NCBI GenBank assembly: GCA_963832675.1
Contig: CAWHUY010000034.1
Location: 77,716 to 141,715, forward strand
Reading direction: 5' to 3'
DNA length: 64,000 bases
Source: an uncultured Spirochaetota bacterium
GTDB taxonomy: Bacteria; Spirochaetota; Spirochaetia; DSM-27196; DATKUC01
A program made the translations under genes and the position numbers. This document shows, piece after piece, positions 5-13,675 of this stretch. Position 1 is the stretch's first letter. Every line of letters starts with the position of its first letter. Below the pieces are notes generated by a model, which made no database searches, had not been told where the DNA came from, and saw only the letters and a list, made by a program, of their open reading frames with translations.

Positions 5-33
5 AGTATGACATATTCCATGACAATTGTCAA
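5..33 (-). promoter_or_regulatory. sigma70-type promoter with overlapping palindromic operator TGACAATTGTCA (21-32); drives a gene left of the window
   Basis: Minus strand reads TTGACA-attgtcatggaatatgt(17)-CATACT with TGn extension; perfect 12-bp palindrome overlapping the -35. Confidence 0.75.
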
Positions 34-78
34 TAGGACTCCGGCACATTGATTCTCCTGCGCCGCAGATTGTCGCTC

Positions 79-1599
79 CTACGTTCCGGCGGCGCTTTGC
101 TTCTGCCTCCCGGATTGTCCCCCAAGCACTTCGATCAATTCGAGGTACCTTCCATAGCGCTCCTGGTATATCGCGCTCTCACGGTCCGCCGGTTCGTAGC
201 GGCCGCCCGGCCTGACCATTGCCGCCGCCGCCTGGGGAAGTCCGCTGTGGAGTCCGGTGCCCACTGCGGCAATCGCCGCCGCCCCCAACGCTCCAACCTG
301 CGTTGCGCGGCTCGTCTCTATCGAAAGCCCGGTGATGGCACTGAACAGCCTGCACCATGCGGGGCTGTTTGTTGCGCCGCCTGAAAGCACCGCACTCTGC
401 TTGCTCATGCCGTTGCGCCGGAGTATATCGAGGTGCTGCCGGTGGGCGAAGACAACCCCTTCGTAGATCGCATGGGCCAGGTGGCGTGCGTCATGCTCCG
501 GGCGGATACCGGCGAAACAACCCCCGACGTCAGGCGAGAGGTGCGACGGATAGAGAAAAGGCAGATAAAACGGATCGGCCGACTGCACGGTGTGTGCGTC
601 GATCTCATGGTTCATTCTGTGGTAGATCTCCGAGGTAGGGGAGGTCGGGTCGTGGCGCCTCATCACCTGAGTCACGAACCATTCGAGATTGCATGCCGAC
701 GTGGCGCTCGACTCGACGAAAGCGAAATGTGCCCCATCGGCTCCCAGAGAACACTTAACCGTCGATTCTGCGGGAAGAAGGCTGCGCTCGAACGCCGTAT
801 TTATGTTCCAGGTGCCGGCAATCATACTGTAGCGGCTTTCGTCGTAGACTCCGCCTCCGGCAGCGCAGGCAATGACGTCAAACAGTCCGGCGGTGACCGG
901 TGTCCCGACTTTCAACCCGGTCTCATCTGCCGCACGCAGCGTCACCGTTCCCACAGTTTCAGAGCTTCGATGGAGATTCGGCAACTTCTCGAACGCGTCC
1001 GCGATGCCGAAAGTCTCCAGGATCACCTTGTCGTAGGTTCCGCTCAAGAGATTCATGAAACCGCAATTGCTCGCATCGGTGACCTCCCCGGAGGGTTCGC
1101 CGGTGAGCCTGTAGGTTGTCCAGTTCTTGGCTGAAAGCACCCACCGAATCCGGGTATAGGTCTCAGGATCATGCCGTTTGAGCCACGCGAGTTGCGGCAC
1201 CGGCTGCCCCGCCCACGGATGGTGCCTCGTTCTTGCGTAACAGGAGACTCCTTCGGCCTGCCACCGGTCGATGATCGACTGTGCGCGGTGGTCCATCGAC
1301 GAGAACGCTCGTCCGACCGGATCTCCCGCTGCATCAATGGAGTAGAGTCCGGCTCCATGCCCGCTCACGCCGACGGCGGCTATTGCATCCGCTCCAATTC
1401 CGGCGGTTTCGACTACCTGGCGAATCACGGATGCGGTGCGTCTCCACTGTTGGGTCATGTCGATTTCGCTTCGATCCCCGGCATCAACCACCAGAGTCTT
1501 CTCGAGCGCCGTCGCCGCCTCGACTCCGTCGAGCGTAAAGAGAACTGCCTTGGTGGCTGTGAGCCCGTTGTCAATGCTCAGAATCACGGGGCCAGTCAT
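79..1599 (-). CDS. FGGY-family carbohydrate kinase (L-xylulose/3-keto-L-gulonate kinase LyxK-like)
   Basis: N-terminal IDNGLTATKAV phosphate-1 motif, GLFDV, AGTWNIN, LSGGATNS, GALGAA; 506 aa. Confidence 0.85.
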   Translation of the reverse strand: MTGPVILSIDNGLTATKAVLFTLDGVEAATALEKTLVVDAGDRSEIDMTQQWRRTASVIRQVVETAGIGADAIAAVGVSGHGAGLYSIDAAGDPVGRAFSSMDHRAQSIIDRWQAEGVSCYARTRHHPWAGQPVPQLAWLKRHDPETYTRIRWVLSAKNWTTYRLTGEPSGEVTDASNCGFMNLLSGTYDKVILETFGIADAFEKLPNLHRSSETVGTVTLRAADETGLKVGTPVTAGLFDVIACAAGGGVYDESRYSMIAGTWNINTAFERSLLPAESTVKCSLGADGAHFAFVESSATSACNLEWFVTQVMRRHDPTSPTSEIYHRMNHEIDAHTVQSADPFYLPFLYPSHLSPDVGGCFAGIRPEHDARHLAHAIYEGVVFAHRQHLDILRRNGMSKQSAVLSGGATNSPAWCRLFSAITGLSIETSRATQVGALGAAAIAAVGTGLHSGLPQAAAAMVRPGGRYEPADRESAIYQERYGRYLELIEVLGGQSGRQKQSAAGT

Positions 1600-1615
1600 C
1601 CCGCTCTCACTCCTC

Positions 1616-2677
1616 TCATGCGATGAATCTCTTCACCGCCTCGTGAAAGACCGGTTTATTCACGATGAATCGCGAATCACCGCCCTCCCAGAGCTTCACC
1701 ATTTCAGCGGCAAGCCTTTTCGGGGAATTGAAAAATGCGTCGTTGGAGCCGCCCGCCATATGTGGCGTCAGCGTCACGTTTTCCAGGGACACGAGAGGAT
1801 ACTCTTTTCCCGGGGGTTCGGTGTCAAAAACGTCAAGCGCTGCGCCGGCGATCCGCCTGTCACGCAATGCTTCGTACAGAGCCTTTTCATTCACCAGCGC
1901 AGAACGCGAGGTATTGATAAGATATGCGGTCGGTTTCATCCGCGCAATGAGTTTTCCGTCCACGAGGTTCTCGGTCTCCTTCGTAAGACGGGCGTGTACG
2001 GTAACGAAGTCCGCACGCGACATGAGCTGTGCGAGGTCCACAAGCTCGACTCCCGCCGGCGGCACCTTCACGAACGGATCGTAGCCAAGAATCGTCATGT
2101 CAAAGCCGGAGAGTCTTTTCGCTACCTTCTGGCCAATTTCCCCCAGACCGATTATGCCGGCGGTCTTCCCGGGCAGGTCGGGGATGTTTCCGGAGTTCGG
2201 GTACACGCGAATCCAATCGCCGTTCTTCAGCCCGAGGTGTCCGCGCGCAATGTTTCGGCACTCGCTGATCAGAACGCCCACGGTGAAGTCGGCCACTGCA
2301 TCGGAGTTTCTTCCCGGTGTATTGTAGACCAGGATCCCACGCTCGGTGGCGTGATCGACATTGATATTTTCAATTCCCGCGCGAAGTACACCAATTACCT
2401 TGAGGTTGGCGCAAGCGTCGATCAGTTTCCGGGGAACCGGACAGAACTCGGTGATCAGAATATCGGCCTCGCGCGCCGCTTCGTAGATGTAGGCGGGCGG
2501 ATCGTAGGCTTCACTTCCGTTCTTTTCGACCAGGAGGTTGACGTTCTGCAGCTCCTGGAACCCGTCGAGCGTCCAGTCCAGCGTGTGAACCTCGACTCCA
2601 CGTTCGGCAAGGGGCGCAAACCCGGTGCGAATGTGTTCGTGGGGGATGAACAGTTCCCCGATACCGGTAAGTCTCAT
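1616..2677 (-). CDS. D-isomer-specific 2-hydroxyacid dehydrogenase (SerA/PGDH-like)
   Basis: RAGIENIN, GIIGLGEIG, LINTSR, ALDVF-EP, TPHMAG motifs; start moved to ATG 2677 with GAGGAGG RBS (ORF-track extension to 3124 overlaps the SDR). Confidence 0.88.
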   Translation of the reverse strand: MRLTGIGELFIPHEHIRTGFAPLAERGVEVHTLDWTLDGFQELQNVNLLVEKNGSEAYDPPAYIYEAAREADILITEFCPVPRKLIDACANLKVIGVLRAGIENINVDHATERGILVYNTPGRNSDAVADFTVGVLISECRNIARGHLGLKNGDWIRVYPNSGNIPDLPGKTAGIIGLGEIGQKVAKRLSGFDMTILGYDPFVKVPPAGVELVDLAQLMSRADFVTVHARLTKETENLVDGKLIARMKPTAYLINTSRSALVNEKALYEALRDRRIAGAALDVFDTEPPGKEYPLVSLENVTLTPHMAGGSNDAFFNSPKRLAAEMVKLWEGGDSRFIVNKPVFHEAVKRFIA

Positions 2678-2688
2678 TGAATTCCTCC

Positions 2689-12598: not shown

Positions 12599-12614
12599 TC
12601 CCTATTTCTCCTCT

Positions 12615-13256
12615 TTATGCGTCATCCCGGCTGGCCGGTATTGATCGTCCCGGGAGACCTTCCAGCCGCGCTTCGACGATCTTCCGTCCCTCGAGCACTT
12701 CGGCTTCTTCACCCGATATATAGACACGGCCGAAACGACCGAATCCCTGGACGTCGATGATCTTGATCTTGGCGGTCTTTTCCGCCTCGTTGGCAGCGAA
12801 GTAGGCGTACCCGGCCGGCTCGAGCTCGAGCACGTAGAGCGTCTCGCCCCGCAGCAGCATGTTCCCGTAGCGGGTCTTGTTGATGAGCTGACAGTGATGG
12901 TCGGACATGTTCTTGATCAGCTGGCTGGTCAGAAGCCGCGGTTTCAGGCTGTCTTCTTCATTCTTGGAAAGCGCCTTGAGAACCGACTCTCCCGCCATCC
13001 GCGTGTCGCCCTGGCTGTCGGAGTGCACCTCCATCATTCCGTAGGAGCGTTCAACCACCTGGAGTCCCGGCGTCACGTTGGTGGCCTTAAGCGCAATGTC
13101 CATCAACCGGTTTATCTCGATCCCTGGTGCAATCTCGATGACGCAGCATGCCTGAAACGCGACCGGGAAATATCCCCGGGATATCGTCGACAGGTAGGAG
13201 GCCATCTGCGGTTGCAGGGAGTCGAGAACGACGTAGGTTCGCAAATCAATTGCCAT
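12615..13256 (-). CDS. BMC shell trimer (tandem domain, CsoS1D/CcmP-type double-stacking BMC-T)
   Basis: LRTYVVLDSLQPQ, EIAPGIEINR, QVVERSYG, PAGYAYFAANEAEK, GRFGR; 213 aa. Confidence 0.9.
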   Translation of the reverse strand: MAIDLRTYVVLDSLQPQMASYLSTISRGYFPVAFQACCVIEIAPGIEINRLMDIALKATNVTPGLQVVERSYGMMEVHSDSQGDTRMAGESVLKALSKNEEDSLKPRLLTSQLIKNMSDHHCQLINKTRYGNMLLRGETLYVLELEPAGYAYFAANEAEKTAKIKIIDVQGFGRFGRVYISGEEAEVLEGRKIVEARLEGLPGRSIPASRDDA

Positions 13257-13261
13257 GTTCG

Positions 13262-13564
13262 TTACTCCTTCCGATCGCTTCGGCCGAGCGGCAGAGCGCC
13301 GTCTACGGAGGCATGCGGCCGAGGAATGACGTGCGTCGAGACTATCTCACCGACTTTCTCGGCGGCGCGCGCGCCGGCGTCAACCGCTGCCCGACAGGCG
13401 GCAACGTCTCCCCGCACAATCGCAGTGACGTATCCGCCCCCTATCTGCTCGAACCCGATCAAATCAACTCTGGCTGCCTTCACCATTGCATCCGCCGCTT
13501 CGGTCATCGCGGCGAATCCCCTCGTTTCGATCATGCCGAGGGCGTCAAACATCGTTTCTGCCAT
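13262..13564 (-). CDS. BMC shell hexamer (BMC-H), first gene of the BMC operon
   Basis: [51 protein letters not shown]. Confidence 0.96.
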
Positions 13565-13646
13565 GCGTCCTCCTCTCCCTCAAGTTCCTGGTGCCCGCCG
13601 CGACCGGCGGCGGCCGATCAAACTCAATTCGTACGTGTTTATCAGA

Positions 13647-13675
13647 ACTCTAACATAATTCATGACGTTTGTCAA
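13647..13675 (-). promoter_or_regulatory. sigma70 promoter of the BMC operon with operator TGACAAACGTCA (13663-13674)
   Basis: Minus strand TTGACA-aacgtcatgaattatgt(17)-TAGAGT; same box and position as at 21-32 and 7392-7403. Confidence 0.8.

Follow-up and report, generated by a model that had tools for sequence, protein, structure and literature searches.

Among the described systems closest to the one reported here are the SorC-family regulators DeoR and CggR of Bacillus subtilis and the SPU type of bacterial microcompartment (BMC). The part of PMC11229326 drawn on in this paper describes DeoR and CggR as tetramers on bipartite operators of 39 and 45 bp, the DeoR operator as a palindrome with a repeat downstream of the -35 element, and the effector domains of the SorC family as binding phosphosugars that are intermediates of the controlled pathway. 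SPU loci, of which more than 280 are described from 26 phyla, count as one of the most widespread kinds of BMC; their native function is unstudied, and their substrate, inducer and regulation are hypothetical. The 2014 BMC taxonomy mentions DeoR-family regulators for the GRM5 and PVM types only. Here we analyse a stretch of 64,000 nucleotides from an uncultured Spirochaetota bacterium (contig CAWHUY010000034.1 of assembly GCA_963832675.1; in our notation G000:C34:77716-141715, where G000 is the assembly of 3,884,790 nt, 37 contigs and 58% GC), hereafter the window, in which a conserved block lies over the promoters of an SPU-type BMC operon and its neighbours. We consider it likely that a SorC-family repressor, encoded nearby and subject to autoregulation, uses this block as its operator and governs four transcription units: unit A, to the left of the window; units B and C, inside it; and unit D, further along the same contig.

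Three minus-strand promoters of the window, PA, PB and PC, which drive units A, B and C, respectively, have the common architecture that the original prediction had ascribed to them. Read on their own strand they are TTGACAATTGTCATGGAATATGTCATACT (33->5), TTGACAATTGTCATGTCATATGTTAGAAT (7404->7376) and TTGACAAACGTCATGAATTATGTTAGAGT (13675->13647), and they are the best sigma70-like sites in window positions 1-14500: 10 to 11 of the 12 hexamer positions match the consensus, the spacer is 17 nt, and a TG precedes the -10. When the promoter of unit D is added, the four align without gaps from the -35 to the -10 with 21 of 29 columns invariant, and their flanks (120 nt upstream, 171 nt downstream) show background similarity. 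The 12-mer TGACAAWYGTCA, with at most one mismatch, gives six strand-matches at four places in the window against 0.68 expected, a number reached in none of 100 shuffled windows. The predicted fourth box is indeed present over the presumed +1 of PB (TGACAAACGTCA); it is kept in a close relative (G003), and three further genomes (G001, G041 and G042) have an analogous box after their -10. In a scan with a position weight matrix (PWM), all window matches of at least 12 bits were the known sites, read on one strand or the other; no other promoter of the window carries the motif, in line with the claim made for its ROK and hydrogenase promoters.

The anatomy of the element was derived from the information content of 53 unique sites of other genomes. 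High values are found at positions 1-5 (TTGAC), 10-11 (GT), 13-14 (AT), 20 (A), 24-25 (TA) and 29 (T). Positions 2-13 form a palindrome (half-sites TGACAW and ATGTYA) and positions 14-25 a weaker one (TRRMAT and ATGTTA); the operator thus consists of two abutting 12-bp imperfect palindromes, 24 bp in all, fitted inside the stretch from the -35 to the -10 hexamer. The dyad symmetry that had been predicted is therefore present, but in a double palindrome and not in a single 12-mer. At some sites the two copies are perfect tandem repeats (for example TGACATATGTTA-TAACATATGTTA). Positions 21-25 overlap the extended -10 and the beginning of the -10, while positions 7-20 are unexplained by sigma70 elements. 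Double palindromes also occur without obvious promoter context (G000:C3:80117 and locus L075), and at several loci three sites form an array or sites lie ahead of the core promoter. A bipartite operator of repeated or palindromic halves, on or near the promoter, is a trait of the SorC family and is found here, albeit with 24 bp against the 39-45 bp of the solved cases.

At the scale of the genome the motif is discrete. In the whole G000 assembly, four sites lie within five substitutions of the 29-mer consensus, each with 0 mismatches. The fourth is new: TTGACAAATGTCATGTTATATGTCATAGT at G000:C34:307031 (+), about 165 kb past the right end of the window, has an identical promoter architecture and precedes a short-chain dehydrogenase/reductase (SDR) gene and a sugar ABC transporter (unit D). 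The PWM used for the G000 scan was built solely from sites of other genomes; over about 7.7 million positions it gave the four sites 35-40 bits and the next best 18.3. The promoter pattern TTGACA-N17-TANNNT, in contrast, has 120 matches genome-wide, of which only four carry the spacer motif; the motif is hence no general property of G000 promoters, and a generic housekeeping promoter was rejected as an explanation. This sustains the earlier claim of spacer conservation beyond the needs of sigma70 and disposes of the concern that the motif might mark many unrelated promoters. The regulon of three units that had been proposed does carry the motif in all three, but has to be enlarged to four, plus a weak fifth candidate. 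That candidate, the double palindrome CTAACAAATGTCATGGTAAATGTCAATCG at G000:C3:80117-80145 (18 bits), is the best match outside the regulon and is found some 290 bp ahead of an operon encoding a class-II ketose-bisphosphate aldolase, a 2-hydroxyacid dehydrogenase and an FGGY kinase, the last two from the same families as genes 5 and 6 of unit B; it is a possible fifth target of low affinity. Two lesser matches (C3:5521 and C14:214711, 16-17 bits) are near-identical stretches with no promoter-like context, appear by eye to be conserved coding sequence, and were treated as false positives.

Inspection of the genes left of the window, where the original prediction had suspected the regulator, did reveal a likely candidate; it belongs to the SorC family and not, as had been envisaged, to GntR, LacI or the PF00455 type of DeoR, and its gene stands third in the off-window unit. 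Being encoded in unit A, which is itself headed by an operator, it would be autoregulated. The protein has a Sigma70_r4-like helix-turn-helix (HTH; residues 15-47) and a PF04198 domain (3.3e-63, residues 58-314), that is, the HTH DNA-binding domain of the SorC/DeoR subclass and the C-terminal NagB-like, sugar-phosphate-binding domain that define the SorC family, and its best full-length matches in the PDB are Klebsiella pneumoniae SorC (2w48, 1e-46) and B. subtilis DeoR (8r7y, 2e-40). It stays below the NCBIfam cutoffs for both B. subtilis DeoR (NF053881, 217.9 bits against 420) and LsrR (NF011947, 105.5 bits against 486). All motif-associated regulators have a recognition helix of the form S-[ML]-[IL]-L, whereas other SorC homologues, including the aligned PDB proteins, have S-R-[LMI]-L. 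A site of at least 21 bits was found at 27 of 31 loci with the M/L helix (the misses being L060, L064, L069 and L074) and at 0 of 48 loci with the Arg helix, where the maximum was 14.6. At the same overall identity of 35%, the M/L-helix locus L088 has sites and the Arg-helix loci L084, L086 and L087 have none. G000 also encodes a second SorC homologue, 33% identical (G000:C24:19929-20930), in a separate sugar locus without the motif, comprising a binding protein, an ABC ATPase, a DsbA-like protein, a xylose-isomerase-like TIM barrel and an FGGY kinase; the congeners G002 and G004 have kept this type of paralogue and lack the unit A type of regulator.

Phylogenetic footprinting bears the motif out ahead of orthologous units. 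Regulator orthologues occur in 3 of 40 related genomes: G003 (95% identical), G001 (58%) and G029, from another family (41%); the remaining matches, the C24-type paralogue included, are at most 33% identical. G003 has sites before the BMC operon, before unit B (with the same auxiliary box), before unit A and before a further ABC transporter; G001 has a tandem pair before the BMC operon and a site before its SDR-ADH-regulator genes (ADH, alcohol dehydrogenase); G029 has a divergent pair before a kinase-regulator operon and the operon opposite. On a single contig of G001 (L045, G001:C70:1-20000) all four units are present: ABC permeases are followed by a site, the BMC operon with unit B fused to it, a second site and unit A, so that the dispersed regulon of G000 is a single locus in this congener. 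G001 has no promoter/operator between the BMC operon and unit B, where G000 and G003 have one; within the genus, then, the cluster has undergone rearrangement and a change of promoters. The 25-nt pattern TTGACNNNNGTYATNNNNNATGTYA occurs exactly only in the 4 of 41 genomes that hold an orthologue and in none of the other 37. Single one-mismatch matches away from known operator sites (G002, G004, G011 and G000:C34:117163) number four against three for the reversed pattern in the 41 genomes, and were rejected as being at control level. A site in G002:C57, with two mismatches in a 23-mer but six against the 29-mer and no -10, precedes an unrelated ABC transporter in a genome without an orthologue and was likewise left uncounted.

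The scan was extended to species-representative genomes (80 loci encoding relatives of the regulator). Orthologues of 50-54% identity come from Clostridia and a Calditrichales isolate, those of 35-45% from other Spirochaetota. Where the regulator is at least 37% identical and the upstream DNA usable, a same-strand site of at least 20 bits lies within 2.3 kb upstream of the regulator at 24 of 29 loci, either 35-155 bp from the gene or about 1.5-2.0 kb away, before a kinase-regulator or SDR-ADH-regulator operon; L068 and L069 had insufficient upstream sequence and were left out of the count. The presumed autoregulation is thereby conserved in Spirochaetota, Clostridia and Calditrichales, from which these loci come. 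Motif sites were also found ahead of ABC transporter, SDR and kinase operons, and in the Calditrichales genome G041 and the Clostridia genome G042 a site heads an SDR-ADH-...-BMC-...-kinase operon, with a divergent SDR of the type that begins units B and D. The 25 site-bearing loci have the SorC regulator in 23 cases and a kinase like B6 (gene 6 of unit B) equally in 23, the next family following with 17; most related loci have the B6 orthologue in one transcription unit with the regulator. No site of at least 20 bits was found in 47 more distant loci (851,873 nt), many of them from GC-rich Streptomyces and for that reason a weak control by themselves; the 37 spirochaete genomes without an orthologue are the better one. 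The regulators of L056-L068 and L085 (Bacillota) and of L059 (Calditrichales) are closer to that of G000 than are those of most other Spirochaetota and come with the same operator and gene set, which suggests horizontal transfer of the whole regulon between phyla.

Discreteness of the motif, its conservation and its co-variation with the recognition helix together argue for control of all units by one regulator, as originally proposed, and make this the best-supported reading. By analogy with its characterized relatives, the protein may bind as a dimer of dimers over the promoter core and occlude RNA polymerase, until a phosphosugar intermediate of the pathway releases it; since the pairing of kinase and regulator is conserved, the signal would probably be the product of the co-transcribed FGGY kinase. 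Unit D, unit A, unit B and the SPU-type microcompartment of unit C would then rise as one. Binding, sign of regulation, oligomeric state and effector are inferred here. Several points weigh against this reading or qualify it. The initial PWM, which selected the sites in other genomes, was trained partly on G000 sites. The compared loci and genomes are mutually related, so that the counts overstate independence, and five of the 29 orthologue loci (L060, L061, L064, L074 and L075) have no upstream site. The conservation of the right-hand palindrome (TGT-TA) may in part be owed to the promoter. The palindrome centres are only 12 bp apart, in a 24-bp operator against 39 bp for DeoR and 45 bp for CggR, and the tetramer geometry of these proteins is therefore not simply transferable. 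As the regulator misses the DeoR and LsrR cutoffs, its effector is not assignable by homology.

A different factor might bind the motif, be it the C24 SorC paralogue, the ROK protein of the window or an unlinked regulator, the unit A SorC gene being merely one of its targets; the existence of the 33% identical paralogue and the five orthologue loci without a site would fit such an arrangement. We hold it to be improbable, however: the paralogue's own locus is free of the motif, G002 and G004 retain the paralogue (best matches 32%) and have no exact motif site, the motif goes with the type of recognition helix in the unit A orthologue (27/31 against 0/48), and in the 25 site-bearing loci no family other than the B6-like kinase is as constant as the SorC gene. 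If the unit A protein does bind, it could still act as an activator or a dual regulator instead of a simple repressor. K. pneumoniae SorC, the best match in the PDB, is described as an activator/dual regulator, and the three-site arrays and the sites upstream of core promoters in several loci would suit such a role. Yet the sites lie over and between the two hexamers of promoters in which 10-11 of 12 positions agree with the consensus and the -10 is extended, so that no activator should be needed and a bound protein would block the polymerase, and the auxiliary boxes lie over or downstream of the +1. Activation is thus unlikely in our view.

A third possibility dispenses with a dedicated regulator altogether: a promoter cassette could have been duplicated along with SDR genes, or the block could represent a promoter type of a special sigma factor. 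Three of the four units do begin with an SDR, those of units B and D being closely similar, and both hexamers are part of the conserved block. The similarity, on the other hand, ends exactly at the hexamers, 5' untranslated regions and upstream flanks being unalignable; unit C begins with a shell gene, and the SDR of unit A is only 30% identical to that of unit B. With random flanks and unrelated first genes, a segmental duplication behind the promoter similarity was rejected. The dyad symmetry of the spacer and the copies outside promoter context (7365-7376, C3:80117 and L075) are at odds with this possibility, as is the persistence of the motif across three phyla in which the neighbouring proteins have diverged to 35-55% identity; and the hexamers are those of ordinary sigma70 consensus. 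We give this explanation very little credence. A SorC-family repressor encoded in unit A remains the reading that we favour.

The regulator gene and the genes of units B and C are listed in Table 1. Unit A, driven from PA, encodes an SDR, a Zn-dependent alcohol dehydrogenase (Zn-ADH), the SorC-family regulator and an EamA transporter; unit D (C34:307088 onward) begins with an SDR, after which come the genes of a ribose-type ABC transporter, for a binding protein, a double ATPase and two permeases. Units C, B and A follow one another directly on the same strand, 36-45 bp apart, and no convincing terminators were found between them; they are one gene cluster with internal promoters, and unit D alone is truly remote. 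The catabolic operon (unit B), which had been called an orphan, is accordingly none, the more so as it is fused to unit C in G001. No NCBIfam equivalog was found for either kinase, the binding protein, the SDRs, the Zn-ADH, the cupin or the URO-D-like protein. Gene 5 of unit B probably starts later than its longest open reading frame (ORF), given that its relatives align over about 350 aa only.

Table 1. Promoters with their proposed operators, the regulator gene of unit A, and the genes of units B and C (window positions, unless a contig is named)
Feature	Position	Strand	Remarks
SorC-family regulator, 322 aa, third gene of unit A	G000:C34:74741-75706	-	2.0-3.0 kb left of window
Promoter/operator PA	5..33	-	-35 TTGACA (33-28), 17-nt spacer, -10 CATACT (10-5); double palindrome 32-9; 36.3 bits
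FGGY-family sugar kinase B6 (unit B gene 6)	79..1599	-	no NCBIfam equivalog cutoff reached
D-2-hydroxyacid dehydrogenase (unit B gene 5)	1616..3124	-	relatives align over ~350 aa only
FGGY-family sugar kinase B4 (unit B gene 4)	3448..5034	-	
URO-D / MtaA-like protein, role unassigned (unit B gene 3)	5031..6053	-	
Ureidoglycolate-lyase-like / DUF4867 cupin (unit B gene 2)	6069..6584	-	
SDR (unit B gene 1)	6586..7335	-	74% identical to SDR heading unit D
Auxiliary operator box	7365..7376	-	abuts -10 of PB, over predicted +1
Promoter/operator PB	7376..7404	-	TTGACA, 17-nt spacer, TAGAAT; double palindrome 7403-7380; 39.9 bits
Aldose 1-epimerase family (unit C last gene)	7441..8331	-	
Deoxyribose-phosphate aldolase (DERA), SPU signature enzyme	8353..9258	-	TIGR00126 268 bits, cutoff 117
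RpiB/LacAB-family sugar-phosphate isomerase	9150..9689	-	TIGR00689 143 bits (cutoff 88); NF004051 152.5 (cutoff 135)
Two BMC-P (EutN/CcmL) vertex proteins	9661-9936 and 9933-10211	-	
Acylating aldehyde dehydrogenase (EutE type), encapsulation-peptide-like N-terminus	10221..11669	-	frame broken in G000
Two further BMC-P proteins	11666-11965 and 11970-12275	-	
BMC-H shell protein	12290..12598	-	
CcmP-like tandem-domain shell protein (BMC-T dp type)	12615..13256	-	NF053796 272 bits, below cutoff 340
BMC-H shell protein, first gene of unit C	13262..13564	-	
Promoter/operator PC	13647..13675	-	TTGACA, 17-nt spacer, TAGAGT; double palindrome 13674-13651; 36.8 bits

Unit C is an SPU-type microcompartment as the literature defines it: DERA (pfam01791, deoC) is encoded with shell genes, an RpiB-type isomerase (pfam02502) is adjacent to it, and the shell comprises two BMC-H, four BMC-P (EutN/CcmL) and one CcmP-like tandem protein. 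RpiB and DERA, in their longest ORFs, overlap by about 108 nt, in G003 as well, and the DERA ORF has some 80 residues ahead of the deoC domain as an N-terminal extension; RPI-DERA fusions and a physical complex have been reported for SPU loci (Dwyer et al.). Compared with G003, the aldehyde dehydrogenase gene of G000 has three separate 1-nt insertions (near 11441, 11316 and 10906), none of them in a homopolymer, which cut it into four frame segments; the DNA identity to G003 is 89% over 1461 nt. Both G003 (NF011927, 647 bits, cutoff 403) and G001 have the gene intact, as a single ORF of about 480 aa, and the 85-aa ORF at 11412-11669 of G000 is its N-terminal piece with the encapsulation-peptide-like helix. 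All other compared cluster genes have full-length matches in the relatives; the broken gene may be a pseudogene or a local assembly error. A terminator-like hairpin with a T-run within the N-terminal part of this gene (11541-11561, minus strand) is probably due to chance, since the number of such matches in the region equals the shuffle expectation.

Operator and regulator mark the genes that belong with the organelle, namely transporter, dehydrogenases and kinases, and the regulon argues for a sugar or polyol pathway in this lineage and not for nucleoside salvage. A wider picture can be drawn tentatively, though we hold it for rather less probable than its contrary: the SPU microcompartment would be fed by an imported neutral sugar or polyol, oxidised by SDR/Zn-ADH and phosphorylated by the FGGY kinases, and not by DNA-derived deoxyribose; the kinase product would be both the inducer of the SorC protein and the precursor for the encapsulated RpiB, DERA and aldehyde dehydrogenase steps; and regulon and operator would have spread together as a mobile unit among Spirochaetota, Clostridia and Calditrichota. 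A local repressor over a catabolic regulon is ordinary, and the mechanism itself is not new; the value lies in what is, as far as we could find, the first cis-regulatory handle on a poorly understood and understudied organelle. To the small set of known SorC-family operators, the present one contributes a compact version of 24 bp that goes with a distinct recognition helix. As the promoters match the sigma70 consensus, promoter and regulator could moreover be moved into Escherichia coli as a portable test system for inducer screening.

In its logic the regulon resembles the Lsr system of E. coli (LsrR/LsrK with lsrACDBFG), in which the phosphorylated effector of a SorC-family repressor is produced by an FGGY kinase. 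The Lsr genes further encode a ribose-type ABC transporter, made up of one binding protein, one double ATPase and two permeases, and an enzyme of the DeoC/LacD family, and the net conversion is that of a C5-phosphate into a C3-phosphate and acetyl-CoA. The pairing of SorC protein and kinase, the make-up of the transporter and the DeoC/LacD-family enzyme recur here, the net conversion would be the same, and LsrR and the AI-2 kinase turn up as weak matches. The kinases, however, score 153-233 bits against a cutoff of 528, no LsrG was found, the aldolase is a true DERA equivalog and not LsrF, and the aldehyde step would be enclosed in a BMC.

With B. subtilis DeoR (dra-nupC-pdp) the regulator shares the domain architecture, the subclass of DNA-binding domain and the conserved base-contacting Arg of the 'ISR' turn; in both systems, to judge from the part of PMC11229326 drawn on here, the target operon, a proposed one in our case, includes DERA (for DeoR as its first enzyme) and the operator is bipartite (in DeoR a palindrome with a repeated half) and partly overlaps the promoter. 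The tetramer and the phosphosugar effector, dR5P (deoxyribose 5-phosphate) for DeoR, are traits of DeoR in that source (PMC11229326) and are proposed for the present regulator by analogy. The half-site is TGACA/TGTYA here and TTGAA/TTCAA in DeoR, M/L takes the place of the DeoR Arg in the recognition helix, and the targets are a microcompartment, kinases and an ABC transporter, with no nucleoside genes. CggR of B. subtilis (gapA), as far as the same part of the source goes, is, as proposed for the present protein, an autoregulated SorC-family repressor with a tandem operator, and its tetramer and phosphosugar effector are again extended to our case by analogy only; it is the first gene of its own operon. 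CggR differs in belonging to the winged-helix subclass of DNA-binding domains, is a distant match (9e-10, effector-binding domain only), and has a 45-bp operator downstream of the +1 with a GC-rich repeat.

Regarding the organelle itself, no paper linking SorC regulators with microcompartments was found among those that a literature search listed, and full-text literature searches with six operator 12-mers returned matches in unrelated papers only, judged by title and abstract. The words 'SorC' and 'DeoR' are absent from the main texts of two SPU papers, whose supplementary locus tables may nevertheless list such regulators. In the portions of the SPU literature drawn on here, DNA-derived dR5P is proposed as the substrate, at variance with the pathway suggested above, and the sole regulator mentioned is a GntR-like one at a single Chloroflexi locus. 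The locus has in common with described SPU loci (Axen 2014; Sutter 2021; Dwyer 2024) the DERA, the RpiB, at least three BMC-P and the BMC-H proteins, with SPU2/SPU3 the CcmP-like BMC-T, and the lack of a phosphotransacylase (PTAC) in the operon; a gene for the acylating aldehyde dehydrogenase is present too, though with a broken frame in G000. It differs from them in that the microcompartment stands within a regulon of polyol-type dehydrogenases, FGGY kinases and a sugar ABC transporter.

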